Below, one piece after another: positions 26,010 through 47,044 of a stretch of 48,673 nucleotides of DNA. The stretch lies in the UHGV virus genome UHGV-0181052; one strand, 5' to 3'. The notes under the pieces were generated by a model. It saw nothing but the letters and a program-made list of their open reading frames with translations. It was not told the origin of the DNA and did no database searches. Positions within the stretch are counted from its first letter, which is position 1. The number at the start of each line of letters is the position of its first letter. The stretch comes from a virus. The position numbers and the translations under genes were made by a program.

Positions 26010-26030
26010 AAAAAGGCGGCCTAAGCCGCC
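26010..26030 (-). terminator. terminator/attenuator-like hairpin after the major tail protein gene
   Basis: Minus strand: GGCGGC-TTAG-GCCGCC followed by T5, then the RBS of the G gene. Confidence 0.6.
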
Positions 26031-26046
26031 CTGATGATAGCACGCT

Positions 26047-28701: not shown

Positions 28702-28723
28702 AAAAGGGGGCCAATCGGCCCCC
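28702..28723 (-). terminator. terminator/attenuator-like hairpin after the major capsid gene
   Basis: Minus strand: GGGGGCC-GATT-GGCCCCC followed by TTTT. Confidence 0.55.
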
Positions 28724-29940: not shown

Positions 29941-30642
29941 TTACTCTGCTACGTCGATGCTTGCCGCGATCTGCTCTGCGCGACTCAGCTGCTTGCCGCG
30001 CACGTCGTCGAGGCTCGGGAGCTTGTCGGTGGCCGGGGGCGTCGGGTTCGGTGCCTGATGGCGGCCGGTGCCAGAGGATGCAGGCGCTACGCACACCGGT
30101 TTGTAGGTCGGGTCTGCCCGGAACTCGCCGATCAGGTCGTTCAGGGACATCGCCGACGGCTTGCCGTCTTTCAGCACGCGGGGGATGAAGTCGGAGCCAT
30201 CTTCGCCGCCCTCGATAGCCAGTCGCTGCTGCAACGCCGGTTTGAACAGTGCGGCATACTCCTTGCCACCCAGCTCTGCGGCCAGCTTGTCGATCTGCGC
30301 GTTCAGGAAGTCATCGCGGCGCTGCTTACCGAAGCCTTCGATCTTGCCGTTCAGCTCGGCGATCTGGCGCTTATAGTCCTCTTCGATGGTTTTGAAGTCA
30401 CCGTTCTTCTTCGCCAGGTCAAGCGCTGCCTGTCGGGCCTTCTCTGCTTCGGCGGCCTTCTCTGCGTCGATGGTACCCAGGCGGGCCTGTAAGTCGGTCA
30501 TCTGCTGTTGCATGGCCTGCACGTCCGGCATGCCTTCGATGTTCATCACGTAGTTGCCGGAATCGCCGACTGCCTTGTATGCAGCCTGCTGTTCAGGGGT
30601 AAGGGCGTCAAACGCTTCTTTGTTAATCAGATATTTCCACAT
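29941..30642 (-). CDS. scaffolding protein
   Basis: 233 aa, helical and acidic (QAMQQQMTDLQARLGTIDAEKAAEAEKARQAALDLAKK). It lies between the minor head protein gene and the capsid gene. AGGAG RBS. Confidence 0.6.
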   Translation of the reverse strand: MWKYLINKEAFDALTPEQQAAYKAVGDSGNYVMNIEGMPDVQAMQQQMTDLQARLGTIDAEKAAEAEKARQAALDLAKKNGDFKTIEEDYKRQIAELNGKIEGFGKQRRDDFLNAQIDKLAAELGGKEYAALFKPALQQRLAIEGGEDGSDFIPRVLKDGKPSAMSLNDLIGEFRADPTYKPVCVAPASSGTGRHQAPNPTPPATDKLPSLDDVRGKQLSRAEQIAASIDVAE

Positions 30643-31793: not shown

Positions 31794-33400
31794 TTAGCCC
31801 CCTTCTTCGGCGCGCTGGCCTTCTTCTTGGCGATCGGCTTGTCTTCCTCCGGGTCTTTCTCTTCCGGCGGATTGTCCAGTCCCTGTTGGGTCTGTCGAGC
31901 GGCTGCGTTGAAGATCAGCTGCGTCTCTTCGGCCCCGTCTTTCAGCTCCTGCTCAACGTCCTCCAGGTCAACATCGTTCGGGATCAGGCCGATGCGCTGC
32001 TGCCACGCGAGGAAGTCGATCATACGCATCATCCCTGACTGCACCGCCGCCATGTAGGCCGTCAGTTCGGTCGGGTTCAGGACGATATCCTCATAGCGCT
32101 TGTTGATGTGGACGTTCGCGCCCTCGGTGCCGGTGAAGTCCTTCACCATCTCCATCGCCTGATTAAACGCCGCCTCGACGTTGCCGACGCACTGGGACAG
32201 GATCGAGTTGTCGGTTTTCTCATCCGCACCAGCCTGGGTGGCGGTCTTCGTCGCCCCGTTGCGCTCAACCAGCTTAGCGCCCAGCATAGCCAGCTGCTTC
32301 TCACGCTTCTCCAGCAGCGCAGCGGCCGGGGTGTTCGGTGGTGCCACGACCATGCTGGCTGTAGGCGTGCCGGTACCCATGGATTGCAGAATGATCGCTT
32401 CGTCACCGCCCACCTTGATGTTCGGGTTGTCCTTCTGGAAGTTCTGCGGGACACCGGCGATCACGAAGGTCGGCTGGCCGCAGATAAACGAGCTGTCAGT
32501 GTTGTCGGCGTCGGCGTTGTAGTGGGCGATGTTGGTGTTCGCGATGTCGGACAGCGGAGCCGGGTCAATGTCGCTGTCGTTCTTCTCGCTGCCGAACCAG
32601 CAAAACGGCAGGTAGTCGATGTGCTTCCCGCGGGCCATGATCGGGCGCAGTTCTGGCTCCTGCTGGTTCATGCTCCCGTTCTGCTGGATGACTGACGAAG
32701 GAAGACCGGCGGCACCCTGTAATTCATCCGTCCACAGGCGGGAATACGCCTTGCCATCCACCATGCGAAGCTCAAGGTAACGAACCACCTGATAGTGCTC
32801 GAAGCCGTCATAGTCGACGTCGTCCAGGTAGCGCAGCACAACCAGCGTGTACTTCCCGTTGCTCTTGCGCCAGTTGATGATCTGCCGGTGGTCGAACATG
32901 CGGATGGTCACGCGGCCGCTGTTGACCAGCGTAGTCACCTGCCCGACGTCCTCCGGGGAGTCATAATCGACCAGCAGTCCACCACGACCGAAGGTGATGT
33001 TCTGCGCTACGCACATTCGCACCAGCTGATCCATATCCAGCCCTTCGCCGTCGATGTCGGTCGACAGGTAGTCGATGGCCGTCGGCAAGGTGTAGGTGGC
33101 CGGTTTTGCGAACGCGATGCCGACCATACCCATCTGCGTGCGGTAGGTGGCGTTGAGGAAGTGGGCGCGGCGCTTGTACGCGTTGTAACGCTTCATTGTC
33201 CATGCTTCGGGCTTCGGCAGATACAGGACACCGGCGCGCTTGATGACCGTCTGCCCTGCCACGCAGTCCTCAATGGTGCGGTATTCCTGGTTGAACCGCT
33301 TATAGAGCGGGTGTTCGGTGGATACCGTCCCCGCCTGCGGCAGTGTCGTGATCGTCATATCATCGTACCCATTCAATATTATTTGCTGAGATCGTGCCAT
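31790..33400 (-). CDS. portal protein
   Basis: 536 aa, downstream of TerL, with an acidic C-terminus. An alternative start ATG at 33358 sits 1 nt past the TerL stop. Confidence 0.8.
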   Translation of the reverse strand: MARSQQIILNGYDDMTITTLPQAGTVSTEHPLYKRFNQEYRTIEDCVAGQTVIKRAGVLYLPKPEAWTMKRYNAYKRRAHFLNATYRTQMGMVGIAFAKPATYTLPTAIDYLSTDIDGEGLDMDQLVRMCVAQNITFGRGGLLVDYDSPEDVGQVTTLVNSGRVTIRMFDHRQIINWRKSNGKYTLVVLRYLDDVDYDGFEHYQVVRYLELRMVDGKAYSRLWTDELQGAAGLPSSVIQQNGSMNQQEPELRPIMARGKHIDYLPFCWFGSEKNDSDIDPAPLSDIANTNIAHYNADADNTDSSFICGQPTFVIAGVPQNFQKDNPNIKVGGDEAIILQSMGTGTPTASMVVAPPNTPAAALLEKREKQLAMLGAKLVERNGATKTATQAGADEKTDNSILSQCVGNVEAAFNQAMEMVKDFTGTEGANVHINKRYEDIVLNPTELTAYMAAVQSGMMRMIDFLAWQQRIGLIPNDVDLEDVEQELKDGAEETQLIFNAAARQTQQGLDNPPEEKDPEEDKPIAKKKASAPKKGAK

Positions 33401-34751
33401 TATGCACGACAGGGAACTTATAGACCACCGGATAGGTGCCTGCGTCGTTCATGTGATCCTTCCCGGCCTCTTTGTCCGGCTTGCCCTTGTCATCGTAGAT
33501 CTGCTGCTCCAGACACTCGACGAATTGCGGGCAGCGCTTGCTGCTGACGAACAGGCGACGTCGTCCGCTGGCGTTGCAGAACAGGGTGTTCGCGCTGATT
33601 ACCCTGTCCTTCACCGCTGGGTTAGCCAGACCACAGTAGACGTCGAAACCGGCGCTCATGAGCATCGACAGGTCGGACATACTGGCGTTCTTGCTGCTGG
33701 TGTTGCCGCCGGACGCATCCGGGTAGACCTCGATCGGGTGGACGTAGCCGTTGCCCGGGTTCTGGTACTTCTCGACCAGCCAGCGGATGACGTCAGGGGT
33801 GTCGATGCCGTTGTGCCGCTCATCCACGGCGTGCAGTTCGGCCAGACCATCCTCGCCATAGCGCTCGACGTAGACGACGGTCGCCATCTTGTTAACGTTG
33901 AAGTCCTGGCCGACGATCAGCGTCTCCCCGGGGATGATCTCCACGTCGGTATCGTTCAGCTCGCGCTTAAAGTTCTTATAGACCGTGCCCGATTTCAGGT
34001 TGACGAATTGCCCCTTCGCATAGGCCTCGAAGCGCTGCGGGTCGTAGCTGGCGCGCAGGGCGTCCAGGTAGTCGGCAGGCAGGAAGGGGTTGGATGAGGT
34101 GGCGGCCTGGATCATGAGGTAACCGGCCTTGCGGCTGCGCTCCTTGTCCTTCGCCCAGCGGCCATACAGGAAGTTGAATCCCTCGGGCGTGCAGTAGGCG
34201 CTAACCCTGTTCAGCGGGCGGTCATCGGGCAGGAAGTCGAACGGAACATACTCCTTCGGTGACTGACGACAGCGGGCGATGGCTGCGCGCCAGACCCCTT
34301 TGGCCGCCTCTTTCTTGAGGGTGTCGATCTCATCGCAGTGGATGCGGAACGCCTCCCACCCGACCAGGCGAGCCGGGTTGTCCATGGAGCGAAACAGGAA
34401 GTCACCGATCCCGCCGTGGGAGGTGTAGATCTCCTTGTTGCCGACGGTCTTAAAGCGAATGCCCAGTTCGGAGAGGATCTGCTCGATGCGCGGCACGGCA
34501 ATCAGCTTGCACAGGTCGAACGTTGGCTCAAGAATGGCGATCGTGGCATCTGCTCCACCCTCTGAGGCGTCGAGCACGGACGACACGGCCATGGTCTGGC
34601 TCTTGCCGGTACCGAAGCCCGCCACGAATGCCGGGTGTTTGCACGACAATTGCAGAAAATCGTTCTGCGGTGGTGTAAGTGTCAGGTCAATGAATTGACT
34701 GGCGTCGGATTGGATAGACATAAAAAAGCCCCGTTGTGTTAACGGGGCCAT
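33360..34751 (-). CDS. terminase large subunit
   Basis: Walker A GFGTGKSQT and ATPase plus nuclease halves. Alternative start ATG at 34721, immediately after the hairpin. Confidence 0.9.
   Translation of the reverse strand: MAPLTQRGFFMSIQSDASQFIDLTLTPPQNDFLQLSCKHPAFVAGFGTGKSQTMAVSSVLDASEGGADATIAILEPTFDLCKLIAVPRIEQILSELGIRFKTVGNKEIYTSHGGIGDFLFRSMDNPARLVGWEAFRIHCDEIDTLKKEAAKGVWRAAIARCRQSPKEYVPFDFLPDDRPLNRVSAYCTPEGFNFLYGRWAKDKERSRKAGYLMIQAATSSNPFLPADYLDALRASYDPQRFEAYAKGQFVNLKSGTVYKNFKRELNDTDVEIIPGETLIVGQDFNVNKMATVVYVERYGEDGLAELHAVDERHNGIDTPDVIRWLVEKYQNPGNGYVHPIEVYPDASGGNTSSKNASMSDLSMLMSAGFDVYCGLANPAVKDRVISANTLFCNASGRRRLFVSSKRCPQFVECLEQQIYDDKGKPDKEAGKDHMNDAGTYPVVYKFPVVHNGTISANNIEWVR
34722..34748 (-). 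terminator. strong intrinsic-terminator-like hairpin at the very start of terL
   Basis: Minus strand: GCCCCGTT-AACAC-AACGGGGC followed by T6, then ATG (34721). Confidence 0.65.
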
Positions 34752-34767
34752 GATAGCAGTTGTCAGG

Positions 34768-34977
34768 CTATGAGAGCACGCGGAGGAATGCCGTGTACCG
34801 CGTGGCGATGTGCGCCACCCCTACCAGGAGGAAGACGGCCAGCACCAGCTTGGTGATCTGGCTGACCGGGTTAGCCTTGAGGCGTTCCCTGTCCATTGCC
34901 GCCATATGGATCGCGATCATCGCGACAGCTGTAACCAATGCCAACCACACACCCATTACGATCCCCATCATAACCAC
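34768..34977 (-). CDS. small membrane protein (2 predicted TM helices)
   Basis: 69 aa with two hydrophobic stretches. It lies between the coiled-coil gene and terL. Confidence 0.4.
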   Translation of the reverse strand: MVMMGIVMGVWLALVTAVAMIAIHMAAMDRERLKANPVSQITKLVLAVFLLVGVAHIATRYTAFLRVLS

Positions 34978-35055
34978 CTCGCTGTAAGCCTGATTAAAGC
35001 CTATCAGCCAGCCACTTCGGTAATCAACCGCCTAAATGGTACAAAGTGTAAGCAA

Positions 35056-35268
35056 TCAGACCAATCCGAAGGCCCGGATGAAGCCTGCTGCGATGAACGC
35101 CCAGCAAGACCAGTGGAACACGTCGCCAGCGATGCCGAAGGTTCGTGCCATCCTGAGCATACGCTTGTCACTTCCTGCGCCGATATCCAGGGCCACTGAC
35201 CAGCCTTTGCAGCAGAGGAAGCAGAGAAGGCAGAGAACGGCGCTAATGATTGGGTAGTACGTTTGCAT
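35056..35268 (-). CDS. small membrane protein (2 predicted TM helices)
   Basis: 70 aa: MQTYYPIISAVLCLLCFLCCKGW...WSCWAFIAAGFIRAFGLV. Confidence 0.4.
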   Translation of the reverse strand: MQTYYPIISAVLCLLCFLCCKGWSVALDIGAGSDKRMLRMARTFGIAGDVFHWSCWAFIAAGFIRAFGLV

Positions 35269-35282
35269 TGGGTAGCCTCATT

Positions 35283-35298
35283 GGCCCCCGTAGGGGCC
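35283..35298. repeat. GC hairpin GGCCCCCGTAGGGGCC between the coiled-coil gene and the membrane-protein gene (copy 2)
   Basis: Identical 16-mer (17-mer including the following G). Confidence 0.7.
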
Positions 35299-35308
35299 GG
35301 TAGGTGGA

Positions 35309-36910
35309 TTATTTGCGCATCTTCGAAAGGATATCAACAACTGCCTGATTCAGGTCTTTAATCTCATCCCTGATGACTTCACGGATGGCGGCCTTCATTT
35401 CGTCGCTGAACGTCACCTTGCTGGCCGGGATGCAGCCGTTCATGATCACCGCGCTATCCTTGACCATGGCCCAGCCACGAGCAGACGGCAGGACGTACTC
35501 CTTCACCGGCTCATTGCTCACAACTACATCGTCTTTCAGCTTGGTGACCTTCAACGTGCCGCACATGGTCTGCTGGCCGTCGATGTCCACCGTACTCACC
35601 TTCACCTTCGCCTTCACCAGCGAAAGCAGTTGCTCGTTCGTGTACACAACGGCGCAGGTGTCGGTGTAGCTCTTCGCCCACAGCACCCAGGCGTCGCGCT
35701 GTGCTGCGATGGCCTTCACGGTTGCTTCCAGCGTCTCAATACGCTCCTTGCGTTTCAGCATCACTGAGCCGATGGCCTTACGCTGCGCATCCATCGACAT
35801 ATTGGATGGTGAGCAGATGATGTCGTTTGCCCAGCTCTTCCAGTTGGTAAGCATCTTGTCCATCTGTTCAACTTCGTTTCGCAGTGCGTCGACCTTGCGC
35901 GCCTGACACTTCAACGTGTGTTGGTCAACGGCCGTTCCCGCTTTCAGGTCTTCGGCAAGCTGTTTGTAGTTGGCGATCTCCAGACCAGCGTCAGCCAGCT
36001 TGGTAGCCAGCTCGCGGTTCTCACCCTCAAGCAGGGTGATGCGTTGCAGCAGGGCGTTCTCCTGCGCCTCAGCGTGTGATCGAATGTTCGAATACACAGC
36101 CGCCGACTGCACAACCTCACCGTCTAACCGGCGCTTGAGGTCTGCGATCTGCAATCGTGCATTAGCCAGGCGCGTCACGACGTCATCCCGCTGCTTAGTC
36201 AGTGCCTGTGCGTCATTGGTGAGCGCAACGCAACGCCGTGCTGCTGCGCCCAGTTCGCGGCGGTAGTCGTCGGCGAGATGGGTCAGGCGCTCACGCTGCT
36301 TTTTCAGGTCGTTGACCTCACAGGCCAGTTGGTTAGCCTGCTGCCCGTTCTTGTCGCGCTGGCGCACCAGGTCGACGATGGTCTGATCGAGGTGCTCGGT
36401 GCGCTTTTTCAGGCTGTCGTTGGCTTCGTTCAGGGACTTGATTTCTTCCGCTGCGTTGCGGTTGAGGTTGATCACGCCTTCGCGTTCACTTTTCAGCCTG
36501 GCCGACTCGTTGCGAGACGACTCAATGGCCGCTTTCAGGATGATGCGCAGTTGATCGTCATTGGTGACGCTTGTCGGGTAGGTGACGAAGAAACGATCCA
36601 GGATGTGGCGGGTGAATGTGCGCCAGTCTTCCAACTTGCCAGCTGCAACACCGAGGTCTTCGGCGCGTTCGTCGAGGCGTCCCACAAGCGTCTCCTTCTC
36701 CTTCGCCAGCAACTCAACGGCGTCGGTCAGGGCACGCAGGGTGCCAACCTTGATCTTCACGTGCTGCTCGGTGCCACGGCCGTAAAGCTCGATGTCGATG
36801 ACCCTTGCGAGTCTGACGTTATTCTCAGTGCTGCCGCTGCTGTCTGCGCAAGCGAGAACGCCGCTAACTGGTGCCGGTGCCGGGGAGGTGAACTTTAATG
36901 ATTCAGTCAT
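35309..36910 (-). CDS. long coiled-coil protein (533 aa) of unknown function
   Basis: Central roughly 300 aa are heptad-rich (LKKRTEHLDQTIVDLVRQRDKNG...). The ends are globular. No ATPase motif. Confidence 0.6.
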   Translation of the reverse strand: MTESLKFTSPAPAPVSGVLACADSSGSTENNVRLARVIDIELYGRGTEQHVKIKVGTLRALTDAVELLAKEKETLVGRLDERAEDLGVAAGKLEDWRTFTRHILDRFFVTYPTSVTNDDQLRIILKAAIESSRNESARLKSEREGVINLNRNAAEEIKSLNEANDSLKKRTEHLDQTIVDLVRQRDKNGQQANQLACEVNDLKKQRERLTHLADDYRRELGAAARRCVALTNDAQALTKQRDDVVTRLANARLQIADLKRRLDGEVVQSAAVYSNIRSHAEAQENALLQRITLLEGENRELATKLADAGLEIANYKQLAEDLKAGTAVDQHTLKCQARKVDALRNEVEQMDKMLTNWKSWANDIICSPSNMSMDAQRKAIGSVMLKRKERIETLEATVKAIAAQRDAWVLWAKSYTDTCAVVYTNEQLLSLVKAKVKVSTVDIDGQQTMCGTLKVTKLKDDVVVSNEPVKEYVLPSARGWAMVKDSAVIMNGCIPASKVTFSDEMKAAIREVIRDEIKDLNQAVVDILSKMRK

Positions 36911-36987
36911 TTTGATGTCCTGTGCAGTAGGGGCAGGATTGCCCGGCCCCTATATTCCTGCGCAGTCATAGATATGTCAAGCAGTAT

Positions 36988-37485
36988 TTAGTCGTCACCC
37001 CAGTCGACCGCCTCGGACTCCTCGCGCGGCTTCTCCTCCTTCGGCCGCTCGCTGACGATCTTCAACCGCACCGGCTTGTTGGCGTCACCGGTCACGACGA
37101 TCTCAGTGTTGTCGCGGTAGCCGAAGTTCGCTTTCAGCATGAAGGTCGCGAAAGTACTGTTCGTGGCGAATCCAATATTCAGAATCATCTGCTCGTAAAG
37201 CTCGCGCGCCTGCGTGTAAGCGACAGCAAATTCCTTATGCTTCGAACGCCAGTCATGAAACGTCGTCGTCGTGATGCCGATGCTTTCACAGAAATTGAGA
37301 ATAGACGGCATGTGCTTCGGGTTGATGCGGATGTTGCTCTTACCGGCTGTCGTGTGTGAGTGCTGGATATAGTCATCAACGTCGACCCGGAAGTATTCAA
37401 GGAGTTTTTCCGGCATATCCTCGGTGTAACTGGTTGGTCTGCCGACTGGGTTCCGCGGTGTCGTCACCTTCACCTTGTCAGTCAT
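36988..37485 (-). CDS. terminase small subunit (putative)
   Basis: 165 aa, first gene of the leftward late unit, with an N-terminal HTH-like region and an acidic tail. The assignment rests partly on position. Confidence 0.55.
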   Translation of the reverse strand: MTDKVKVTTPRNPVGRPTSYTEDMPEKLLEYFRVDVDDYIQHSHTTAGKSNIRINPKHMPSILNFCESIGITTTTFHDWRSKHKEFAVAYTQARELYEQMILNIGFATNSTFATFMLKANFGYRDNTEIVVTGDANKPVRLKIVSERPKEEKPREESEAVDWGDD

Positions 37486-37549
37486 GTTGTTTTTCCTCTT
37501 TCAAGTGGCTCTGCCTCAGTTTACCCCTATACGGCATGGTGGGGAGAAT

Positions 37550-37582
37550 AAAAACGCGCAGCCACTGCGTAGCGCTTTTTTC
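37550..37582. terminator. GC-rich imperfect hairpin flanked by A5 and T6 (bidirectional terminator-like), upstream of terS
   Basis: AAAAACGCGCAGCCACTGCGTAGCGCTTTTTT. Confidence 0.35.
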
Positions 37583-37645
37583 TTCCCCCATGTGCGTAAG
37601 GGTGTACGTGTTTCTGTAATTATATGGGTTTTATATATAATAGGG

Positions 37646-37810
37646 ATACCACCTAACACCCGAAATTAATCCTTTCATATCAGTAGCTTGCGAACGTCAG
37701 GAAGTGAGGTGTTTCGACATCTCCACCTGAATTAATCCTTTCGCATCAATCACTTAGTATTTTCACCGCTCGAAGCACGGCAAAATGCCTCCACCCGAAA
37801 TATTGCTGAC
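37646..37810 (+). repeat. iteron-like direct repeats in the divergent control region (candidate origin of replication)
   Basis: Copy A GAAATTAATCCTTTCATATCA at 37662-37682. Copy B GAATTAATCCTTTCGCATCA at 37730-37749. Each is preceded by CCACCT. A third partial copy CCACCCGAAATATTGC lies at 37791-37806. Confidence 0.55.
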
Positions 37811-37989
37811 ACTGTACACGCACTTTTTGTGCTCAATTTGTGTACAGCGATTCTGTGGATAACTTTTCCCCAGTCGATTGATTTCACTGGAAAATATAAT
37901 ATTGATACGGGGGAGTCCCTATCTGTTGTGTTTACATACTGTATAAGCGCTCAAAGTCCTCCCTGTTTTCAGGTGGAAAGTAATTGCTA

Positions 37990-38021
37990 TTGACACGGTA
38001 TTACTCGCCGTTAATAATACC
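37990..38021 (+). promoter_or_regulatory. early promoter P_rep with dyad
   Basis: TTGACA 37990-37995, 16-17 nt, TAATAAT. The dyad is GGTATTA / TAATACC. The UTR ACCCGAACC is related to those of P1 and P2. Confidence 0.65.
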
Positions 38022-38044
38022 CGAACCAAATCAGGAGGAAAACG

Positions 38045-39706
38045 ATGAACGAAGAGAACAAAAGGCCGATGACGCCAGACGACTGGAAGGCGTTGCTGGG
38101 CGATCAGGAGAAACAGCACGAAGCGGCGGACATTCTCAACCAGCCGATGACCCGCGAGGAAGAGGACGAAGCCTACTCGCAGGAAATGGCCGATATGCAG
38201 GCGTACTTCGACCAGGTAGCACGTGCTGAGGTGGAGGCACTCGAACAGGAGGAAGATGTAGCGCCACCTGCTCCACCTGAACCACCTAAGCAGAAGAAGA
38301 AAGACGCCGGACAGCGCCACCTTGAGCTGCAACGCATCGTTCGCGAGGAGAATGAAAAGCAGAATCTCGGCATGGACTTATCCGCCCAGCGCGTTGAGGT
38401 GGCAAAGCGTCTCGCTGAGGAAGTCGAGCAGGGTCTGGTTGAAGATCCTGCACTGAAAGACTACGACCCGGGCGAGTACGTGCTGAACACCTCGCCGGAC
38501 TTCTACGACCCGGTGATCGAAGGCCTGCTGAACCGCCGAACCATCAACGAGATCAACGGTGATGCAGGCGCGGGCAAGACGACGCTGCTGGTGCAAATGG
38601 CCGTCAGCCTCGCCATGGGTCGACCGCTGTTCAACTGCTTCCGCGTGTGTAACCCGGGTGTCAGCGTGTTCTTCACCGAAGACCCGGACAGCGTCGAGTT
38701 GCAGGTGGCCGCCTGGTCGCTGCGCACTGGCGTGAATCTTCGCGACTGGATCAAGGTGTTCAAGCGGCCGGCCGATCTGATGGAGCCGGGTAAGCTGCGC
38801 ATCCAGAAGAGTCGCGTGTTGCAGTTCGCCAACGGCAGGCCGGTGAATCTGGTCATCTTCGACAGCAAAATGTTCCACCTGGCCGCAGCCAACAACAACG
38901 GCGTGAGCATGGACGAGAACAGCAACACCGACCAGCAGTTGATCACCACCGCCGGGCACCGGTTCGCTGAGTCCCTCAACTGCGCCGGGATCTTCATCCC
39001 GCACGTCAGCAAGGGAAGCCTGATGTCCGGCCAGTACGACCTTGAGTCTCGTGGTGGATCGGCAGCGAAGGGCGCGGTGTATAAAACGTTCAGCCTGGTG
39101 CGCGAGAAGACGCAGACCGGCAAGGGGTTGAACGCCCGCCAGAAGGAGACAGGCTACACTGTCCTGAACGTCGGCAAGAGCCGCCAGGGCGGGTTGAAGG
39201 GGCGCTTTAAGCTCAAAGGCTTTCAGGTGCCGGTATTCGCGAAGGACGTTGAGGCGAAGAAGAAAAGCACGTATGAGAAGAAGCTCGCACCGGGTCAGGA
39301 GGTCGATCGGCCAGACTTCATCTACATCGACGACGCCACGAAGGTATGGCTGTTCGAAGACCGCGTTTACGATATGGACGCCGGTTCAGAGGATGAGCAT
39401 TTTGAACCGGAAGAGAAGCGTCAGGCGCACGTGTACACGCCATTGCAGGAGGCTGTTTATTCGCTGCTGAGGGCTGAGCCGCATGGCACCGCGCCGTACA
39501 AGGAGATCCTGCACCGTATCAGCTCCACGGTGTTCAAGGCCGACGGCTCGCCGTATTCCCGGGAGTCAGTGCGCGACGCAATTTACAAAATGGCTGAGCT
39601 GGGGCACCTGAGCAAAGAGGCTAACCCACACGAAGCCCGTAACCCGTATTACACGATCAAAGATGCCGTTCCCCCGCTGATGGGTAGCTGCCGTGATAAC
39701 CACTGA
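38045..39706 (+). CDS. replication protein: RecA-like (AAA_25 / DnaB-type) ATPase with C-terminal winged-helix domain
   Basis: Walker A NGDAGAGKTTLLVQMA, Walker B VNLVIFDS. The C-terminal wHTH-like region is YSLLRAEPHGTAPYKEILHRI. The gene is driven by the P_rep promoter and preceded by iteron-like repeats. Confidence 0.75.
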   Translation: MNEENKRPMTPDDWKALLGDQEKQHEAADILNQPMTREEEDEAYSQEMADMQAYFDQVARAEVEALEQEEDVAPPAPPEPPKQKKKDAGQRHLELQRIVREENEKQNLGMDLSAQRVEVAKRLAEEVEQGLVEDPALKDYDPGEYVLNTSPDFYDPVIEGLLNRRTINEINGDAGAGKTTLLVQMAVSLAMGRPLFNCFRVCNPGVSVFFTEDPDSVELQVAAWSLRTGVNLRDWIKVFKRPADLMEPGKLRIQKSRVLQFANGRPVNLVIFDSKMFHLAAANNNGVSMDENSNTDQQLITTAGHRFAESLNCAGIFIPHVSKGSLMSGQYDLESRGGSAAKGAVYKTFSLVREKTQTGKGLNARQKETGYTVLNVGKSRQGGLKGRFKLKGFQVPVFAKDVEAKKKSTYEKKLAPGQEVDRPDFIYIDDATKVWLFEDRVYDMDAGSEDEHFEPEEKRQAHVYTPLQEAVYSLLRAEPHGTAPYKEILHRISSTVFKADGSPYSRESVRDAIYKMAELGHLSKEANPHEARNPYYTIKDAVPPLMGSCRDNH

Positions 39707-39710
39707 GGAA

Positions 39711-39929
39711 ATGACCATGACTATGATTTGCCACGTTACAAGCATCCCGGCCCTTCTCGAAAAAGCGGGCAGTATGCGCAAGCTGACCACCAAGACCGGC
39801 CTGAACACCATGACCATCCTGAAATTCCGGGACGATCATAACTGCGAGCGTCACGCGATCATTAACGGCCGGTTGATGACCTGGCGCGAGACATCCTCCG
39901 CAGATTTCAAAGAATTCATTAAAGAGTAG
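39711..39929 (+). CDS. hypothetical protein
   Basis: Start uncertain (ATG at 39711 or 39717, GAGGA upstream). Confidence 0.45.
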   Translation: MTMTMICHVTSIPALLEKAGSMRKLTTKTGLNTMTILKFRDDHNCERHAIINGRLMTWRETSSADFKEFIKE

Positions 39930-39940
39930 TGTAAGCAGTA

Positions 39941-39969
39941 TTGACACGATGCGGCCCCTATAATATATT
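39941..39969 (+). promoter_or_regulatory. promoter-like element
   Basis: TTGACA 39941-39946, 17 nt, TATATT. Confidence 0.4.
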
Positions 39970-40014
39970 TATCGAACAGGCAGTAACTAACCGATAAATT
40001 CAAGGGGTCGCAAA

Positions 40015-40674
40015 ATGTCTAAATCAGCTATCAAATATCTTACCGCCGCTAACGAAATTCTCTCCGCGCTGGATCTGACCATCGGTAACCCGGCCAGCTG
40101 GATGACAAACGAGCAAGCCCGCAGCCAGTTCAAGAACTCCGACCTGCTGGCCTGCCTGATCATCGACTCCGCAGCGAACGCCCTGATCTGCGAAAACGTC
40201 GACACCCTTGACGAAACCATGTACGACGATATGCAGCAGGCGATCGAAGGTTACATTTCCTCTAACCTCGACGACTGGAACCAGGCAGAGTGGAAAGCTA
40301 ACGCCAGCCTGTGCGACGTGAAAGCGCTGCTGTCTAAGCTGCTGGACGCCGTTGAAGGCCAGCGTGTCTACGCAGCCCGTCAGGAAGCGCATGCCGAAGC
40401 GCTGGTGGTTAACGACATCGTCGACCATGCCATTATGGTGACTCGCTGCTACTCCGACCTGGACAGCCTGACTCATGCCAGTATTCAGCACGCCGTTGAC
40501 TACGCCCGTCAGGAGTTGCTCGCCCTCAACCGTTACCCGGCCCGCTTCATCGTCAAGATGATGATCAGCGTTCGCCGCCTGGCCGGGCTGGCAAGAGAGC
40601 AGGCCCAAAAGGAATACCGCGAAATGATGGCCCGCCCGCGCGTGACGGGGATCGATAGCGAGCTGCCTTTTTGA
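40015..40674 (+). CDS. hypothetical protein (219 aa)
   Basis: Own promoter-like element 39941-39969. RBS AAGGGG. Confidence 0.6.
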   Translation: MSKSAIKYLTAANEILSALDLTIGNPASWMTNEQARSQFKNSDLLACLIIDSAANALICENVDTLDETMYDDMQQAIEGYISSNLDDWNQAEWKANASLCDVKALLSKLLDAVEGQRVYAARQEAHAEALVVNDIVDHAIMVTRCYSDLDSLTHASIQHAVDYARQELLALNRYPARFIVKMMISVRRLAGLAREQAQKEYREMMARPRVTGIDSELPF

Positions 40675-40683
40675 TAAATATTG

Positions 40684-40724
40684 TTGACTCTATGTGCTTG
40701 GGTGTATATAGTGTTTATACACCC
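40684..40724 (+). promoter_or_regulatory. promoter-like element with palindrome
   Basis: TTGACT 40684-40689, 17 nt, TATAGT. The palindrome is GGGTGTATA-TAGTGTT-TATACACCC. Confidence 0.5.
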
Positions 40725-40744
40725 AACGAAATGAGGAAAACGAA

Positions 40745-40981
40745 ATGACAACTGCACAGACCGTAGCCGCAAAATTCAGCAAAATGAACATGAACGCAGT
40801 AGCCGCGTTGGAAGTAATCCTCAACGCTACCCTGCCAGAAGTTTCAAAAGTATCTATTCACCACTGTGAGATCACGTTCAAGGATGGCTCGCTGGTTATC
40901 CTCCACGATACCCGTAACGCGCGCTCCATCGGCCTGACCAACTATGACTACGCGATCCGCACCCAAGACGCTGCGTGCTAA
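40745..40981 (+). CDS. hypothetical protein (78 aa)
   Basis: Promoter at 40684-40712. RBS GAGGAAAA. Confidence 0.55.
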   Translation: MTTAQTVAAKFSKMNMNAVAALEVILNATLPEVSKVSIHHCEITFKDGSLVILHDTRNARSIGLTNYDYAIRTQDAAC

Positions 40982-41010
40982 CCCAACCGGCCCCTTCGGG
41001 GGCCAACCGG
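40982..41010 (+). other. GC hairpin flanked by the direct repeat CCAACCGG
   Basis: CCAACCGG-GGCCCC-TTCG-GGGGCC-AACCGG, with no T-run. The second repeat copy overlaps the SD of the 41019 gene. Confidence 0.45.
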
Positions 41011-41018
41011 AGGAAACT

Positions 41019-41348
41019 ATGAGCAAATGCATTGCCGTCACCGCTAACGGCGTGGAAATGGCTTATTTCCCTTACCATGACCAGCCGTCCTTCATTCGCG
41101 CAGACGAAGAGGCCGATAAGTTCATAAAGACCCTTTGCGGCAAGGTCGATGGTGCATGGAAGGGCATTTCCTACCCTCGTGTTCGCGTCACCACCGCCAG
41201 CGGGATCGTATATGAGGCCTCGTTGTGTCACGTCGATATTGACGACAGCCACGGCGAGGAGCGGATGTTTTCTTTCTGGTATATACCAGCTCTCGGTCGC
41301 TGTAAGTACGCGGCGATCATTCCTGAAACCGTCGAATATATCCAATAA
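41019..41348 (+). CDS. hypothetical protein (109 aa)
   Basis: Start at MSKCIAV with RBS GGAGGA. The preceding hairpin lacks a T-run. Confidence 0.55.
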   Translation: MSKCIAVTANGVEMAYFPYHDQPSFIRADEEADKFIKTLCGKVDGAWKGISYPRVRVTTASGIVYEASLCHVDIDDSHGEERMFSFWYIPALGRCKYAAIIPETVEYIQ

Positions 41349-41360
41349 CGGGAGGGCATT

Positions 41361-41687
41361 ATGGACGGAAGAAAAAGACCACCGCTGTCAATGACGTTCA
41401 AGTTTTGGGACGGCCGCCAGCGCAAGCACGAGGGCGCGGGCACCGTCTCCATGTGCATACGGGCGATCATGCGTGAAATGACAGCCAGACAGCGCGTCTC
41501 CCTGCTGCTGTCGCTGAACAGCTATCACCACGCGCTCGCAGCCGATGAGGGCAAGCCGATGCCGCTGAACCTGACGTTCACCCAATGGGTCAACGCGGAC
41601 GAAGACCGCAAGATCACCATGAAGTGCGATCTGACCCGCTCCATCGCTTACGCTGCATGGCTGGCCGCAGGAGGACGCCCGGAGTGA
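41361..41687 (+). CDS. hypothetical protein (108 aa)
   Basis: RBS GGAGGG. Confidence 0.55.
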   Translation: MDGRKRPPLSMTFKFWDGRQRKHEGAGTVSMCIRAIMREMTARQRVSLLLSLNSYHHALAADEGKPMPLNLTFTQWVNADEDRKITMKCDLTRSIAYAAWLAAGGRPE

Positions 41688-41887
41688 AACTGCGTATCAG
41701 ACAGCGGGCCGTGTTGAAGCGGCTGGCTGTTTCTGAATGGCGCGCCGGTGAGTGGGTCTACGACAGCAAGGCCCACACTGTCACCGCGCTGAACAGCCTC
41801 GTTAACCGAGGTCTGGCAAAATGGAACCTAACCACAGGAGCGTGCGAGATCACGCCGGAAGGCCGACAGGAGGCCCGCAATGATTGA
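41683..41887 (+). CDS. hypothetical protein (68 aa, GTG start)
   Basis: GTGA start/stop overlap with AGGAGG 9 nt upstream. Basic (VKLRIRQRAVLKRLAVSEWRAGEW). Confidence 0.4.
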
Positions 41888-42212
41888 CCAGTTGAAGAAG
41901 ATCACCAACCGTGACGAAGCCCGCGAGCTGGGTGCGCATATCTGCGCCATGCTCATGCCCGGGGCGCAGTTCGCCGTACTGGAAGCCGTTAACGACAAGA
42001 CGAAGGAGACGACCTACCGTGTCGTCGTCGAGTTCGGGCGCGTCCGCTGTATTGCCTACGGCCACAACCGCTTCAAAGCGTCGTACACCGACTCGAAGAA
42101 CCACGTCACCGAGATAGATGCAAAGACCGCCTCCGGTGCGTTGAAGTCACTACGCCTTGAGCTGCTGACGATCGCCACCGTTTACACGCACGGCGCTGGA
42201 ATTATTCTATAG
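41880..42212 (+). CDS. hypothetical protein (110 aa)
   Basis: Translationally coupled to the upstream gene. Confidence 0.5.
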   Translation: MIDQLKKITNRDEARELGAHICAMLMPGAQFAVLEAVNDKTKETTYRVVVEFGRVRCIAYGHNRFKASYTDSKNHVTEIDAKTASGALKSLRLELLTIATVYTHGAGIIL

Positions 42213-42214
42213 TG

Positions 42215-42246
42215 TTGACACGGGATATTATTCCGTACTAATATGC
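42215..42246 (+). promoter_or_regulatory. early promoter with dyad (drives the membrane-protein / lipoprotein pair)
   Basis: TTGACA 42215-42220, 18 nt, TAATAT 42239-42244. The dyad is GGGATATTA / TAATATGC. Confidence 0.65.
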
Positions 42247-42248
42247 AG

Positions 42249-42269
42249 TTCCCGGCACGGTGCCGGGAA
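42249..42269 (+). promoter_or_regulatory. perfect 21-nt palindrome at the predicted 5' end of the 42287 transcript
   Basis: TTCCCGGCACGGTGCCGGGAA, 5 nt after the -10 element. Confidence 0.5.
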
Positions 42270-42286
42270 TAACAGGAGAGAGAATC

Positions 42287-42517
42287 ATGAGCTTATTAAT
42301 TATTTGGGGTGTTATGGCTGTTCTGGTAGGCATCGCTGCTGACCGTCGTGGACGCAATGGGCTGGGCTGGGCGCTGCTGTCGCTGGTGTTCTCCCCGCTG
42401 CTGGCGATCCTATTCTTGCTGGTGATGCGCAACGTCGCAGCAGACGAAGAGCGCCGCCGTATTGAAGAGCGCCGCCACATTGAGACACTGGCCGCCATCC
42501 GTTCTAACAAGGAGTGA
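42287..42517 (+). CDS. small inner-membrane protein (2 TM)
   Basis: MSLLIIWGVMAVLVGIAA...LGWALLSLVFSPLLAILFLLVM. It has its own promoter (42215-42244) and a 5' palindrome. Confidence 0.55.
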   Translation: MSLLIIWGVMAVLVGIAADRRGRNGLGWALLSLVFSPLLAILFLLVMRNVAADEERRRIEERRHIETLAAIRSNKE

Positions 42518-42519
42518 TC

Positions 42520-42882
42520 ATGAAACGTATTACCGCCATCGCCATCGTAGCCGCTGCCGTGCTGGGCTGCTCATACGTCGGAACCGCCAGCGCCGTCAGC
42601 TGCACCGTGGGCATCAAGAACATCAACATCCAGCGCGGATTGGGCGTGTACGACCTCCTGCCGGATAACGCACAGATGGATAAGGTCATGAAGGACGCAT
42701 GCAAGCTGGGTGAGCGCTACCGTAAGGGTAACGTGTCCGAGCCGATGTTCGAAGTCACCCGCGAAGCAGTGATGAAGGCCGTAGCCAACAATAAGGCAGA
42801 CGATGAGGCGAAGGCGCAGGTCATCGCGGTCGTTTCCGACCTGATGGACGTTGGCTACTACGGCGAGGTGAAAGCACGATGA
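42520..42882 (+). CDS. lipoprotein (candidate superinfection-exclusion / receptor-blocking protein)
   Basis: Signal peptide with lipobox AAVLGCS. GGAG RBS, ATG at 42520. Confidence 0.55.
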   Translation: MKRITAIAIVAAAVLGCSYVGTASAVSCTVGIKNINIQRGLGVYDLLPDNAQMDKVMKDACKLGERYRKGNVSEPMFEVTREAVMKAVANNKADDEAKAQVIAVVSDLMDVGYYGEVKAR

Positions 42883-43163
42883 GCAAGATCCCGGCATTCC
42901 CAACTAAGCTCGTGGAAGTCGCCGACGTGAAGCCCGGGCAATGGGTGTGGCACTATGGCCGGTTCGTCCGCGCTGAGTTCATCGACCGCCCGCAAGTGCG
43001 CTGGGACGACGTCGGCACACTGAAAGGCTTCTGGCGTCGCATGCATTACAGCGACATTAACCAGTGCAGCACACTGATCCACCGGTTCGGCCTCAGCTTC
43101 CTGCGCGCAGGCAACATGGTCATGACCCCGGATTTCATCAACGTAGAGGACTTTTGCAAATGA
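42879..43163 (+). CDS. hypothetical protein (94 aa)
   Basis: ATGA coupling. Confidence 0.5.
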   Translation: MSKIPAFPTKLVEVADVKPGQWVWHYGRFVRAEFIDRPQVRWDDVGTLKGFWRRMHYSDINQCSTLIHRFGLSFLRAGNMVMTPDFINVEDFCK

Positions 43164-43546
43164 AACAGAAAGAGCCAGTTTTTGAGCAGTTTTTGCCGTC
43201 TACTTGGACTTTGGGCGACACCCCGGACATTGAGCACGGCCATGAAATGGAGTTTTGGGTGGTGGTGCGCCTGCGTAACAACTGCCGCCTCATCCGCCGC
43301 TTCTGGTACGTCAATTTCGACGAGTGCGGATATACTGACGAACAGCTGGCAAACTGGGACGGCCGCAGCGACGACAGCGGTGAGCCGTTCTTCTTCGTCG
43401 GCTGGTGTCAGGAGGGCGTACACCCGGAGTTCAGCTCCTACTACCTCCCGCTCGACCGCAACCGCGATTTCAGGATCGAGGCTTATGCACCAGTGACCAC
43501 GCCGCGCGTGCCGTACTTCGGAGACGATCATGAAGTTAATCACTAA
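43160..43546 (+). CDS. hypothetical protein (128 aa)
   Basis: Start at MKQKEP with ATGA coupling. Confidence 0.5.
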   Translation: MKQKEPVFEQFLPSTWTLGDTPDIEHGHEMEFWVVVRLRNNCRLIRRFWYVNFDECGYTDEQLANWDGRSDDSGEPFFFVGWCQEGVHPEFSSYYLPLDRNRDFRIEAYAPVTTPRVPYFGDDHEVNH

Positions 43547-43766
43547 AGGGGTGTTTAAGGTCTTCAACTACAACGGTGTAGTGATAACTGCGCCGGGGTG
43601 GGCAGCGTGGATCGCTGTCGATATGGATGGCGCGCTCTACGTCTACGACAACGAGCCGTTCATTTCCGACGGCAACGAATTTTGGAGTGTTGACGGTACG
43701 CCCGATCTGTTAGGCTACGTCGACCTTGATGGCGCGGACTGGCGCAAAACACTGATGAAATGCTGA
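43530..43766 (+). CDS. hypothetical protein (78 aa)
   Basis: GGAG RBS 6 nt upstream. Confidence 0.55.
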   Translation: MKLITKGVFKVFNYNGVVITAPGWAAWIAVDMDGALYVYDNEPFISDGNEFWSVDGTPDLLGYVDLDGADWRKTLMKC

Positions 43767-43776
43767 GGAGCAAAAC

Positions 43777-44466
43777 ATGACTACCAAGAAGAAAAAGACA
43801 GCCGACGTTACCGACCGCTTCACTGCTGGTGACATCCTGCGCTTCGGCTATGAGATCAGCGAAGGCGGTAGCCCGGTTCGCGGTAGCAACATCCCGGGGC
43901 GTAACTCGCTGGTGACGTTTCTGGCCTACGGCGAGCTGGCTGGTCAGGAAACCATCATTGCCCGCTGGCATTGCCTGGCCGACCACGGTGAATATTCCGT
44001 ACCGCACGTGGTTGAATTCCCGTCCAACTTCTTCCAGCACCACGGCGTAGCAGATGAGTCGGCGCTGACCCTCGACAACATCGCGACGCTCAACCGCGAT
44101 TGCGCACGGAAGGACGGCACGGCTATCTATCTGGTCACTGAAAAGGCCGATTCCCCTGAGAGCGCCTCAGAGCCTCTTGACGCCGTTCAGGTGCTCGAAC
44201 GGGTGAAAGGTCATCTTGAGGAGCGCGGACGCCGCTACGGCGCGGAGAACGGCAAAGAGCGCCAGTTCGACCGCATTGCTGATGCGTTCAACATCGTGCG
44301 AGCGTCTGCGAACCGCCAGAACTCCCCACTGACCGGGCTGGATGTGGTGACGCTGCAATCCATCCTAAAGATCTGCCGCGCTCAGACTGACGACAACACC
44401 GACTCGTTCGAAGACCTCGCTGGGTACGCGGCAATTGGCGCTGAGGTTGTTGGTGGCATGAAATGA
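43777..44466 (+). CDS. hypothetical protein (229 aa)
   Basis: GAGGAG RBS. It has a conserved-looking C-terminal RYGAENGKERQFDRIADAFNIVRASANRQNSPLTGLDV segment, but no family could be assigned. Confidence 0.6.
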   Translation: MTTKKKKTADVTDRFTAGDILRFGYEISEGGSPVRGSNIPGRNSLVTFLAYGELAGQETIIARWHCLADHGEYSVPHVVEFPSNFFQHHGVADESALTLDNIATLNRDCARKDGTAIYLVTEKADSPESASEPLDAVQVLERVKGHLEERGRRYGAENGKERQFDRIADAFNIVRASANRQNSPLTGLDVVTLQSILKICRAQTDDNTDSFEDLAGYAAIGAEVVGGMK

Positions 44467-44699
44467 TTCACGATCTGAAAATCCTGCCGGTTCACTTCGA
44501 TGCTGTCAGGTGTGGGAACAAGCGCGCTGAGCTGCGAAAGTGGGATCGGAACTTCTCGGAGGGTGACACGCTTCGCCTTCGGGAGTGGACAGAAGCAGAT
44601 GGCTACACTGGCCGGGTGATCGACGTCCTTGTGGTTCACGTCTGCAACGTCGGCGAATATGCGCCCGGGTACCTGATGTTAAGTTTCTTCGTGCTGTAA
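44463..44699 (+). CDS. ASCH-domain (DUF3850-like) protein
   Basis: ILPVHFDAVRCGNKRAELRKWDRNFSEGDTLRLREW is ASCH-like. ATGA coupling. Confidence 0.6.
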   Translation: MIHDLKILPVHFDAVRCGNKRAELRKWDRNFSEGDTLRLREWTEADGYTGRVIDVLVVHVCNVGEYAPGYLMLSFFVL

Positions 44700-44708
44700 T
44701 AAACAACA

Positions 44709-44733
44709 AGGGGCCGATTGGCCCCTTTTTTTT
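44709..44733. terminator. bidirectional rho-independent terminator (convergence of the + early unit and the - lysis unit)
   Basis: GGGGCC-GATT-GGCCCC followed by T8. The T-run overlaps the endolysin stop. Confidence 0.8.
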
Positions 44734-45229
44734 ACACCTTCGCGTTCCGGCCAACGGCCTCAGCATCCCGCCAGTTCATCCCCTTCGCCAGCGCCTGCCG
44801 CGCCAGCGCACGACGAACCAGCCCGGGGACAATCTTACCGCTCTGCTTGCGGAAGAACTCCAGCTGTACGATCAGCTCATCCCAGCGGCCTTGCGTTACC
44901 AGGTCGTCGAAGTCACCTGCCTTCTTGTCCGGCCTGATCGGCTCTTCACCGGCATTGATGACCAGATCAACCAGCGCGTCAAAGATTGGCTGCGTGATGG
45001 ACTTATGCGCCCACTCGTTCACCTTCTTCTCCGCGTAGGCGAGATCTTCACGCAGGATCGCCAGTGCCGCCTCTCGTGTGATGTTGATTCGTGGAGGGTT
45101 CCGGCCAGTGTGACCGAAGCCCCAGGTGTAGATCCCGCGACGGCGCTCATCTTCGGTTGCGAAGTAAGGCGCGCTGCGGAATTTCTCCCAGGCTGCTGTA
45201 AATTGCAGCCCGTTATCACTCATCTTCAT
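44732..45229 (-). CDS. endolysin (phage lysozyme, GH24-like)
   Basis: 165 aa: YFATEDERRRGIYTWGFGHTG. It lies adjacent to the spanin and holin genes. Confidence 0.75.
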   Translation of the reverse strand: MKMSDNGLQFTAAWEKFRSAPYFATEDERRRGIYTWGFGHTGRNPPRINITREAALAILREDLAYAEKKVNEWAHKSITQPIFDALVDLVINAGEEPIRPDKKAGDFDDLVTQGRWDELIVQLEFFRKQSGKIVPGLVRRALARQALAKGMNWRDAEAVGRNAKV

Positions 45230-45527
45230 TTGTTACCCCTTGTTGCTTGCAATAGTCGGTTGTACTGGGTGTTGCAGCGCTGCCCGGCGATGTAGTACCG
45301 ATCAGCTTCTGCTGCCAGTTCGTTACCCGCTTGCACTGACTGATAGAACAGCTCGGCGAGCAGATCGGAGAGCGTTCCGGCATCACTGCTAATGCCGACA
45401 GCGGCGGCGTGTTGTTTTGCGAGGGCAGTGGCTGCGTTGAGTTGCTGGCGCAGCCGGTCAGCAGCATAAGCAGCACCAGCAGCGTCAGCGCGTGCTTGGT
45501 CAATCCGGCGAGACGTGTCGCGATCAT
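45216..45527 (-). CDS. o-spanin (Rz1-like lipoprotein), overlapping/overhanging Rz
   Basis: MIATRLAGLTKHALTLLVLLMLLTGCAS has a lipobox. The remainder is Pro-rich. It ends 10 nt beyond the Rz stop. Confidence 0.6.
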   Translation of the reverse strand: MIATRLAGLTKHALTLLVLLMLLTGCASNSTQPLPSQNNTPPLSALAVMPERSPICSPSCSISQCKRVTNWQQKLIGTTSPGSAATPSTTDYCKQQGVTNEDE

Positions 45528-46093: not shown

Positions 46094-46111
46094 GATAAGC
46101 GCAAAATCTAT

Positions 46112-46890: not shown

Positions 46891-47032
46891 GATCTTCTCC
46901 TTCCGGTAACCGGGAGAGTGTCCCGGCGATGTATTTGGTGATTACTCGTGTGTTCTTATCCTGGTTCATCCTGCGCAGCCTGTCAGCCCGTGAGACAGTT
47001 CGGGCCTTGTGCCGCTGATACGTCTTACCCAT
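46838..47032 (-). CDS. hypothetical basic protein (64 aa)
   Basis: RBS GAGGAG 8 nt upstream. It overlaps the next gene by 53 nt. Confidence 0.4.
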   Translation of the reverse strand: MGKTYQRHKARTVSRADRLRRMNQDKNTRVITKYIAGTLSRLPEGEDHDVSTGNFEGSNRRARS

Positions 47033-47044
47033 TGGTGCTACTCC

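Follow-up and report, generated by a model that had tools for sequence, protein, structure and literature searches.

Terminator-like hairpins with a putative built-in ribosome-binding site and an abutting promoter-like hexamer precede terL and the holin gene in a Klebsiella siphophage genome

The sequence analysed in this study, UHGV virus genome UHGV-0181052 (48,673 nucleotides (nt), 48.7 kb; hereafter the window), is the complete genome of a Klebsiella siphophage of the vB_Kp3/HBM00 group and is 94-98% identical to the Klebsiella phages HBM00, vB_KPJD2 and vB_Kpl_K49PH164C2. The proposed family 'Ca. Mavericviridae', to which about 330 genomes are assigned, takes in this phage group (PMC11845039). 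Here we describe two similar elements on the minus strand of the window, one at the junction before terL (site 1) and the other at the junction before the holin gene (site 2). Each consists of a terminator-like hairpin with a putative ribosome-binding site (RBS) in its 3' arm, abutted on its 5' side by a hexamer resembling a promoter -10 element. Site 1 lies in the minus-strand late block (37485 to 7831), which encodes terS, a protein of 533 amino acids (aa), two small membrane proteins, terL, portal, head and tail in this order. The early block occupies the plus strand at 38045-44700. Site 2 lies in a second minus-strand block, which runs from the window start, wraps to 48673 and continues down to 44732, encoding methylases, an 84-aa protein, a 175-aa protein, holin, spanin and endolysin. 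This wrap-around assumes that the window is a circular permutation of the genome, and the gene order was compared with that of OY979434.1. Protein and pattern searches of IMG/VR returned three near-identical contigs and nothing else.

At site 1, the hairpin occupies 34749-34727 (minus strand, as are all features of the two junctions), with the 5' arm GGCCCCGTT at 34749-34741, the loop AACAC at 34740-34736 and the 3' arm AACGGGGCT at 34735-34727. It is followed by a U-tract of six T (34727-34722), and the start codon of terL lies directly 3' of this tract. The coding sequence of terL (33360-34721, 453 aa; Pfam Terminase_6N/6C) begins with a conserved ATG at 34721-34719. On the 5' side, the hexamer TATCAT (34755-34750) abuts the stem, and a TG at 34758-34757 makes it a candidate extended -10 element (TGcTATCAT, 34758-34750). 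The stop codon of the upstream small membrane-protein gene is a TAG at 34770-34768. At site 2, the hairpin occupies 46091-46067, with the 5' arm GGCCCCCGT at 46091-46083, the loop TACTAAC at 46082-46076 and the 3' arm ACGGGGGCT at 46075-46067, followed by the U-rich tract TTTTCTT (46067-46061) and directly by the start codon of the holin gene (45710-46060, 116 aa; lambda S family, Pfam Phage_holin_3_1), a TTG at 46060-46058. The putative -10 hexamer is again TATCAT (46097-46092), with TTCAAC 17 nt upstream. The upstream stop codon is a TAA at 46114-46112, and the upstream gene, which encodes the 175-aa PD-(D/E)XK-like protein (46112-46639), is the last gene of the upstream early/middle operon. 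Both sites fold into a 9-bp stem, with a 5-nt loop and a minimum free energy (MFE) of -17.9 kcal/mol at site 1, and a 7-nt loop and an MFE of -20.1 kcal/mol at site 2 (z ~ -2.9 at each). The two hairpins are therefore present as they were quoted in the original prediction made from the DNA letters.

That prediction had placed canonical terminators at the starts of the terL and holin genes. Their terminator-like character and their position directly before the packaging/structural and lysis genes stand, but the hairpins are intergenic and not in the starts of the open reading frames, because the upstream genes stop at the TAG and TAA codons given above; the hairpins lie 16-18 nt 3' of these stop codons, and the gap between stop codon and stem is put at no more than 16-20 nt. 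The prediction had also drawn attention to an in-frame ATG just 5' of each stem (34751 and 46093). These ATGs are in frame at both window sites, but in relatives they are out of frame or absent, and they lie outside the conserved element. The two ATGs of the terL site are 30 nt apart in the window; the spacing changes to 31 nt in ATCEA85/JVSB2 and a 96%-identical IMG/VR contig, to 34 nt in K70PH128C1 and to 35 nt in KLB22, and each of these three spacings puts the upstream ATG out of frame. At the holin site, the upstream ATG is absent in JVSB2/ATCEA85, KW1E and Abuela. Neither upstream ATG is preceded by a Shine-Dalgarno (SD) sequence. In contrast, the downstream starts are conserved. M1 and S2 of TerL are invariant in the TerL alignment, and the downstream ATG and the first residues MS..Q/SD are kept. 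In JVSB2, the TTG 3' of the U-tract is the sole start between the in-frame stop and the conserved holin coding sequence, synonymous third-position differences set in right after this TTG, and in tblastn searches holin homologues in all relatives align from residue 1. The comparison thus indicates that the true starts are ATG 34721 for terL and TTG 46060 for holin, not ATG 34751 and ATG 46093. The occlusion of first codons that had been proposed therefore falls away, as neither gene starts at the ATG before the stem; it is the SD-like G-run that the hairpin would occlude. A role of the upstream ATG as the start of a leader peptide or of an N-terminal extension was rejected, since its frame is inconsistent, it has no SD and no consistent stop follows. 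Automatic annotations of GenBank relatives start terL and holin at the ATG by the hairpin (OY979434.1, 2798-4189 and 40237-40620; MT075871.1). The ATCEA85 annotation is without a holin, and the HSE3 paper reports that no holin was found.

Sites 1 and 2 were the top two terminator-like sites in a scan of 33000-48673. The 16-mer TATCATGGCCCCGTTA, with up to three mismatches allowed, matched at these two sites only (0.24 matches expected). A descriptor composed of TAnnnT, a C-run, a G-run and a T-run had exactly two matches per genome in four whole genomes, namely the window, K49PH164C2, ATCEA85 and the E. coli phage KW1E_UTAR (hereafter KW1E), for 0.04-0.07 expected in shuffles. In all four genomes the matches are the terL and lysis junctions and nowhere else. 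A covariance model built from terL-site orthologues alone found the holin site as its only other match in the window (E = 0.017); holin sites were its best non-training matches, and it retrieved no other terminator of the window. The similarity of the two elements is real and non-random.

We collected 14 distinct lineage-sites through homology of TerL, holin or the 175-aa protein. All of them fold, with free energies of -12 to -19 kcal/mol. When the stem arms were registered by hand from the predicted folds, 91.9% of the cells of the alignment were paired, and compensatory double changes occurred in five of the nine stem pairs (13 cells), a level that none of 500 shuffles reached and no slid register came close to. 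G·U pairs are tolerated in the stems on the sense strand only. Compensatory changes and sense-strand G·U pairs together point to selection on RNA structure. The stems contain six or seven G-C pairs among their nine; their central C3/G3 core is the same throughout, with the C-run on the 5' side and the G-run on the 3' side in every case, a polarity that is reversed or mixed in other terminators of this phage. The TTTT of the U-tract is invariant across the 14 lineage-sites. Both sites carry the sequence features of Rho-independent terminators, a well supported assignment under which they would be expected to terminate transcription in vivo. The element is kept at both junctions in every relative with the same gene order, and its stem shows compensatory changes; the original prediction had argued from the duplication for function, and this is supported.

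The element belongs to the junction rather than to the gene, because the holin of KW1E is unrelated and yet the element is present. It was not found in the relatives with overlapping terS and terL, namely Serratia Smarc2, Jerseyvirus, Dhillonvirus and metagenomic relatives of about 50% identity. A metagenome scan with a TerL profile yielded 80 loci, nearly all at about 50% identity, where the two terminase genes overlap and the hairpin is missing. The element is thus limited to the lineage that has terS and terL apart from each other. Rfam searches of the whole window and of both sites, at gathering and relaxed thresholds, returned only generic terminator tails of small RNA models.

The 3' arm of each hairpin appears to serve a second purpose. 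Its G-run (34732-34729 at site 1, 46073-46069 at site 2) ends 7 nt 5' of the start codon (ATG and TTG, respectively) in all lineages at both sites, and the start codon lies directly 3' of the U-tract. The predicted duplex with the 3' end of 16S rRNA has a free energy of -5.0 kcal/mol for terL and -8.6 kcal/mol for holin, similar to those of the SD sequences of terS and of the major head gene. Annotators of KLB22 marked the same GGGG at the terL site as an RBS, and the orthologous holin junction of JVSB2 (PP444685.1) independently carries 'terminator', RBS (GGGGG) and coding sequence start features. We therefore infer that the G-run is the SD of the next gene. Since the start codon directly follows the U-tract and the SD would lie in the 3' arm, a read-through RNA would have its RBS locked in the hairpin: the whole read-through transcript has a predicted MFE of -16.5 kcal/mol at terL and -23.5 kcal/mol at holin, with the SD within the stem-loop. 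A transcript started after the C-run is predicted to have an essentially unstructured leader (-4 kcal/mol). The same design is seen at a third junction, where the hairpin AGCCTCC-CACACA-GGAGGCT (22438-22419, minus strand) contains GGAGG, a perfect SD, and is followed by seven T and the ATG of a minor tail gene at 22412. An SD in the 3' arm of a terminator is also found at the orthologous place in KW1E (30242-30264) and in ATCEA85.

In the 14-sequence alignment, the only invariant bases 5' of the stem are the T, A and T of a TAnnnT hexamer located one or two bases from the stem. Its positions 3-5 vary freely (TATCAT, TAGAAT, TAGCAT, TATTAT, TATCCT, TATATT, TACTAT and TAACCT, the last five being hexamers of site 2 orthologues). 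T, A and T at -12, -11 and -7 are the signature of the sigma-70 -10 element. The C-run is followed by a purine that in every case lies 6-8 nt 3' of the hexamer, and a local transcript would accordingly start at about G34743 at site 1 and at about G46084 at site 2. Five lineages have a TG at -15/-14 of the terL site, and the -35 term is at or above the 90th percentile of background in half of the lineage-sites scored (6/12), for example TTGACC-17-TACTAT at the KW1E holin site, TCGACT-18-TAGAAT at the KW1E terL site and GTGACA-16-TGcTATCAT at the terL sites of ATCEA85, JVSB2 and L032. With a simple position weight matrix (PWM), the holin site ranks 29 and the terL site 173 among 97,274 positions in the window. 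In the phage Skarpretter, whose holin is a distant homologue, a terminator is followed by TGtTATATT and then by the holin gene, without overlap.

Related arrangements are found at other late junctions. TATCAT occurs seven times on the minus strand of the window, four of these copies being in late intergenic regions (holin, terL, the major head gene and the tail chaperone gene) and a fifth 36 nt 5' of the gene for a 3355-aa giant tail protein. At the junction 3' of the major tail gene (26042-26013, minus strand), TGcTATCAT (26042-26034) abuts a terminator hairpin (26032-26013), and in KW1E the hexamer that abuts the terminator of this junction is GATAAT. Before the major head gene, TATCAT at 29888-29883 (minus strand; TTGCTT-17-TATCAT, PWM rank 21) lies between the terminator 29936-29916 and the gene, and is kept in ATCEA85. 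We also observed that the extended -10-like 13-mer GTGCTATCATCAG occurs twice on the minus strand (26030-26042 and 19180-19192). One copy abuts the terminator before the tail-chaperone gene; the other, kept in ATCEA85, is the one 36 nt 5' of the ATG of the 3355-aa tail gene.

Several observations weigh against reading the hexamer as a promoter. The -35 region is poor at the terL site of the window (-2.2 bits) and at the holin site of ATCEA85 (-4.0 bits), both hexamer sites score well below the early promoters of the phage in the PWM, and the TG extension is missing at the holin site. The GC-rich discriminator (GGCCCC) does not favour a stable open complex. A TAnnnT would also turn up more often by chance where the sequence 5' of a terminator is AT-rich, and at the tape-measure protein junction 'TG' and 'TA' are tandem stop codons. 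The major-tail junction of ATCEA85 has neither the hexamer nor a good U-tract, a loss that fits a co-dependence of the two and yet shows that the pattern is not universal. No activator was identified, and the YTAAC conserved in the loops is left unexplained by a promoter. A recurrent TGCT near the -35 position of the window sites was found post hoc and is not seen in KW1E, and it was not used. A known effect of an A located immediately before the hairpin (bioRxiv 10.64898/2026.07.06.736697) cannot explain the hexamer; the bases adjacent to the stem are G's that extend it. Taking these points together, we give roughly even odds that the hexamer acts as the -10 element for a promoter that is weak or depends on an activator and whose activity would probably rise late.

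Promoter-like sequences that would feed transcripts into the two junctions are also present on the minus strand. A sigma-70-like TTGACA-17-TAATAT (968-996, -10 at 973-968) heads the operon ending at site 2, if the circular permutation is assumed. TTGACA-17-GAATAT (36952-36980, -10 at 36957-36952) precedes the gene of the 533-aa protein, and TTGATA-18-AATAAT (35308-35337, -10 at 35313-35308) heads the small membrane-protein genes. These promoters would read into holin and terL if the hairpins did not intervene. The insert between terS and terL (34768-36980, minus strand), which encodes the 533-aa coiled-coil protein and the two small membrane proteins, thus has sigma-70-like promoters of its own. 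In more distant relatives of TerL, terS overlaps terL without such an insert, and the insert therefore looks like a moron.

The best model of the junction, to which we give a probability of about 0.5, is an intergenic unit of a terminator, an RBS and an abutting promoter that insulates the late units from early transcription upstream. The site 1 terminator would end the cassette between terS and terL (the 533-aa protein and two small membrane proteins), and the site 2 terminator would end the methylase/nuclease operon. By stopping transcripts of the strong upstream promoters, the terminators would keep early transcription out of the structural genes and holin. Any RNA that reads through would be translationally silenced, its SD being locked in the hairpin. 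RNA polymerase recruited at the hexamer would start 6-8 nt further 3', at the first purine after the C-run and inside the 5' arm. Such a transcript would lack the 5' arm and so could neither terminate at the hairpin nor hide its SD, and it would be the productive mRNA for terL and holin. The wider proposal, that two copies of a self-insulating three-in-one junction mark the packaging/structural and lysis units while looser versions occupy other late junctions, is more tentative, and we place it somewhat short of even.

One alternative is that the hairpins are plain terminators or attenuators, and that the late genes are transcribed from the upstream promoters by partial read-through or with an antiterminator that escaped recognition, either a protein or an RNA that works in the manner of lambda N/Q or HK022 put. 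The strong promoters 5' of both sites are in keeping with this. The late operon terminators at 29936, 28723, 26032 and 22438 would need read-through as well, a point that keeps this alternative in play. In a variant, the factor might recognise the conserved loop or hairpin, and melting of the hairpin would free the SD simultaneously. The loop YTAAC is common to most lineages, as a sequence-specific RNA binder would explain, and the window encodes an ASCH/DUF3850 protein (78 aa, PHROG 'RNA-binding protein') at 44463-44699 on the plus strand. This gene is the last of the early block, which ends at a bidirectional terminator. However, no Q, N or other antiterminator family was found in the window genome by Pfam, PHROGs and fold searches, and none is annotated in OY979434.1 (pharokka-type annotation). 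There is no room for a Q-type promoter and pause site 5' of the hairpins, the sole -10-like element abutting the stem. The sites do not resemble the boxA-boxB of lambda N, whose boxB is a hairpin with a GNRA-like pentaloop and no U-tract, or the double stem-loop of HK022 put, as their loops are A/C-rich and 5-8 nt long and a U-tract follows the hairpin. Folding revealed no alternative antiterminator pairing at either site, and there is no Rfam match. The invariant T/A/T, the -35-like and TG elements and the fixed distance to the purine are left unexplained by read-through or antitermination. We therefore consider this alternative a possible but rather unlikely one.

The lambda-Q position is occupied by the 175-aa protein, the gene of which is always directly 5' of the holin-site element and lysis cassette (KW1E, JVSB2 and Abuela) and has homologues in Dhillonvirus. 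It has no match in Pfam and no sequence match in the PDB, and it belongs to PHROG 10558, of unknown function. An invariant motif GD(83)...E(101)VK(103) resembles that of PD-(D/E)XK nucleases. Its AlphaFold2 model has a predicted local distance difference test score (pLDDT) of 68 and is poor around the active site, and the fold matches that it gave, all of them weak (E at least 0.05, TM 0.26), were restriction endonucleases without exception. A Q-like role was rejected, in view of the lack of a family match and of these fold matches. The protein in the Q position thus appears weakly nuclease-like, and no Q homologue was recognised. The 84-aa 'D5-like' protein encoded next to it has no conserved counterpart in KW1E or Abuela.

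It is improbable that the junction is an RNA processing or stability element, with UAUCAU as an endonuclease site and the hairpin capping the downstream 5' end or the upstream 3' end and so setting the stability of mRNA segments. Hairpins 3' of highly expressed genes are common in this phage; a hairpin lacking a U-tract marks the 5' end of the small-membrane-protein unit (35299-35282), and another precedes terL in phage Ymer. However, no close relative that carries the cassette departs from the U-tract, although a 5' cap needs none; a hairpin containing the SD would block translation of the mRNA being stabilised; and it is T/A/T that is conserved rather than general AU-richness, which an RNase E-type site does not predict.

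Still less probable is a site acting at the DNA level, in which the hexamer and a (G)TTAAC-like loop are bound by a phage protein such as the PD-(D/E)XK protein as an operator or roadblock and the hairpin is secondary. Besides the constant proximity of the 175-aa gene to the holin-site element, the best weak fold match of its product is HincII, and a GTTAAC site is present inside site 1 (34743-34738) and in several orthologous elements, which may be a coincidence. Nevertheless, the fold matches fall short of significance and come from a model that is poor just where the active site lies, GTTAAC is present neither in the holin site of the window nor in KW1E, and the compensatory changes and sense-strand G·U pairs point to an RNA structure. 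Finally, the proposal that the ATG 5' of each stem is the real start of terL and holin, with the hairpin in the first codons as a coupling or occlusion device, agrees with the frame in the window and with the automatic gene callers of GenBank but is hardly tenable, being already contradicted by the comparative data, in which neither ATG has an SD, the terL-site ATG is out of frame in L006, ATCEA85/JVSB2, K70PH128C1 and KLB22/KW1E, the holin-site ATG is missing from several relatives and protein homology sets in at the downstream starts.

Two further sets of repeated sequences were noticed in the window. The first is a family of near-identical terminators of the form GGGGCC-GAT(T)-GGCCCC, located at the end of the lysis cassette (44708-44727, bidirectional), at the end of the tail operon (7810-7828) and 3' of the major head gene (28706-28723). 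HK578 has a terminator like this family (about 1262-1285 of the stretch compared). The second is a pair of exact direct repeats of GAAAGGATTAATT on the minus strand (37664-37676 and 37730-37742), 66 nt apart, in the divergent control region 5' of terS (ATG 37485), which may be a regulator-binding site. These repeats were rejected as a shared activator site, as they are not in either hairpin element.

With this analysis, the wrong terL and holin starts given in many GenBank relatives can be put right; one published genome description missed the holin altogether. It also shows where early/middle transcription would give way to late transcription in these siphophages of Klebsiella, Enterobacter and E. 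coli, a little-studied family with members in phage-therapy collections. If the promoter reading is true, the phage would illustrate how lysis and packaging genes can be kept silent in the absence of any recognisable antiterminator, with strong early promoters active just upstream, and the 45-nt cassette, with terminator, promoter and RBS united in a single hairpin, would be a very compact natural insulator, of interest to synthetic biologists.

Compared with known systems, the junction is a new variant of known parts and not a new type of system. As in the pR'-tR'/Q region of lambda, a strong intrinsic terminator directly 5' of a lambda-S-family holin gates the lysis genes, and in both phages the late structural genes carry further terminators. 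However, no Q homologue is present here, the gene in the Q position being nuclease-like. The lambda promoter, accompanied by a Q-binding element and a site of sigma-dependent pausing, lies 50-200 nt ahead of the terminator, whereas here the -10-like element abuts the hairpin; and lambda has one late operon through cos, whereas here the element also precedes terL, giving two separate late units. Riboswitch and attenuator platforms that act on both transcription and translation similarly have terminators whose 3' arm carries the SD of the next gene. They escape by refolding, whereas the start of transcription inside the hairpin is proposed here, and no aptamer, leader peptide or alternative pairing was found at the two sites. 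The late promoters of Mu (Plys, PI, PP and Pmom, activated by C) and of P2/186 (activated by Ogr/B) likewise head late units with a similar promoter-like motif and a weak -35; they pair a good -10 with a poor -35 and come after the terminator of the middle operon, and in both cases the first such unit begins right behind an earlier operon, ahead of the lysis genes. Unlike in those phages, homologues of C, Mor or Ogr were not recognised in the present genome, whose -10-like element overlaps the upstream terminator itself, with a putative RBS built in. Lastly, the insert between terS and terL resembles lambdoid morons in having its own sigma-70-like promoters, in ending at a terminator (that of site 1) and in being absent from distant TerL relatives, where terS overlaps terL. 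In contrast to morons, the same cassette is also found before holin, where nothing is inserted, and it is conserved as a part of the core genome organisation of the family.

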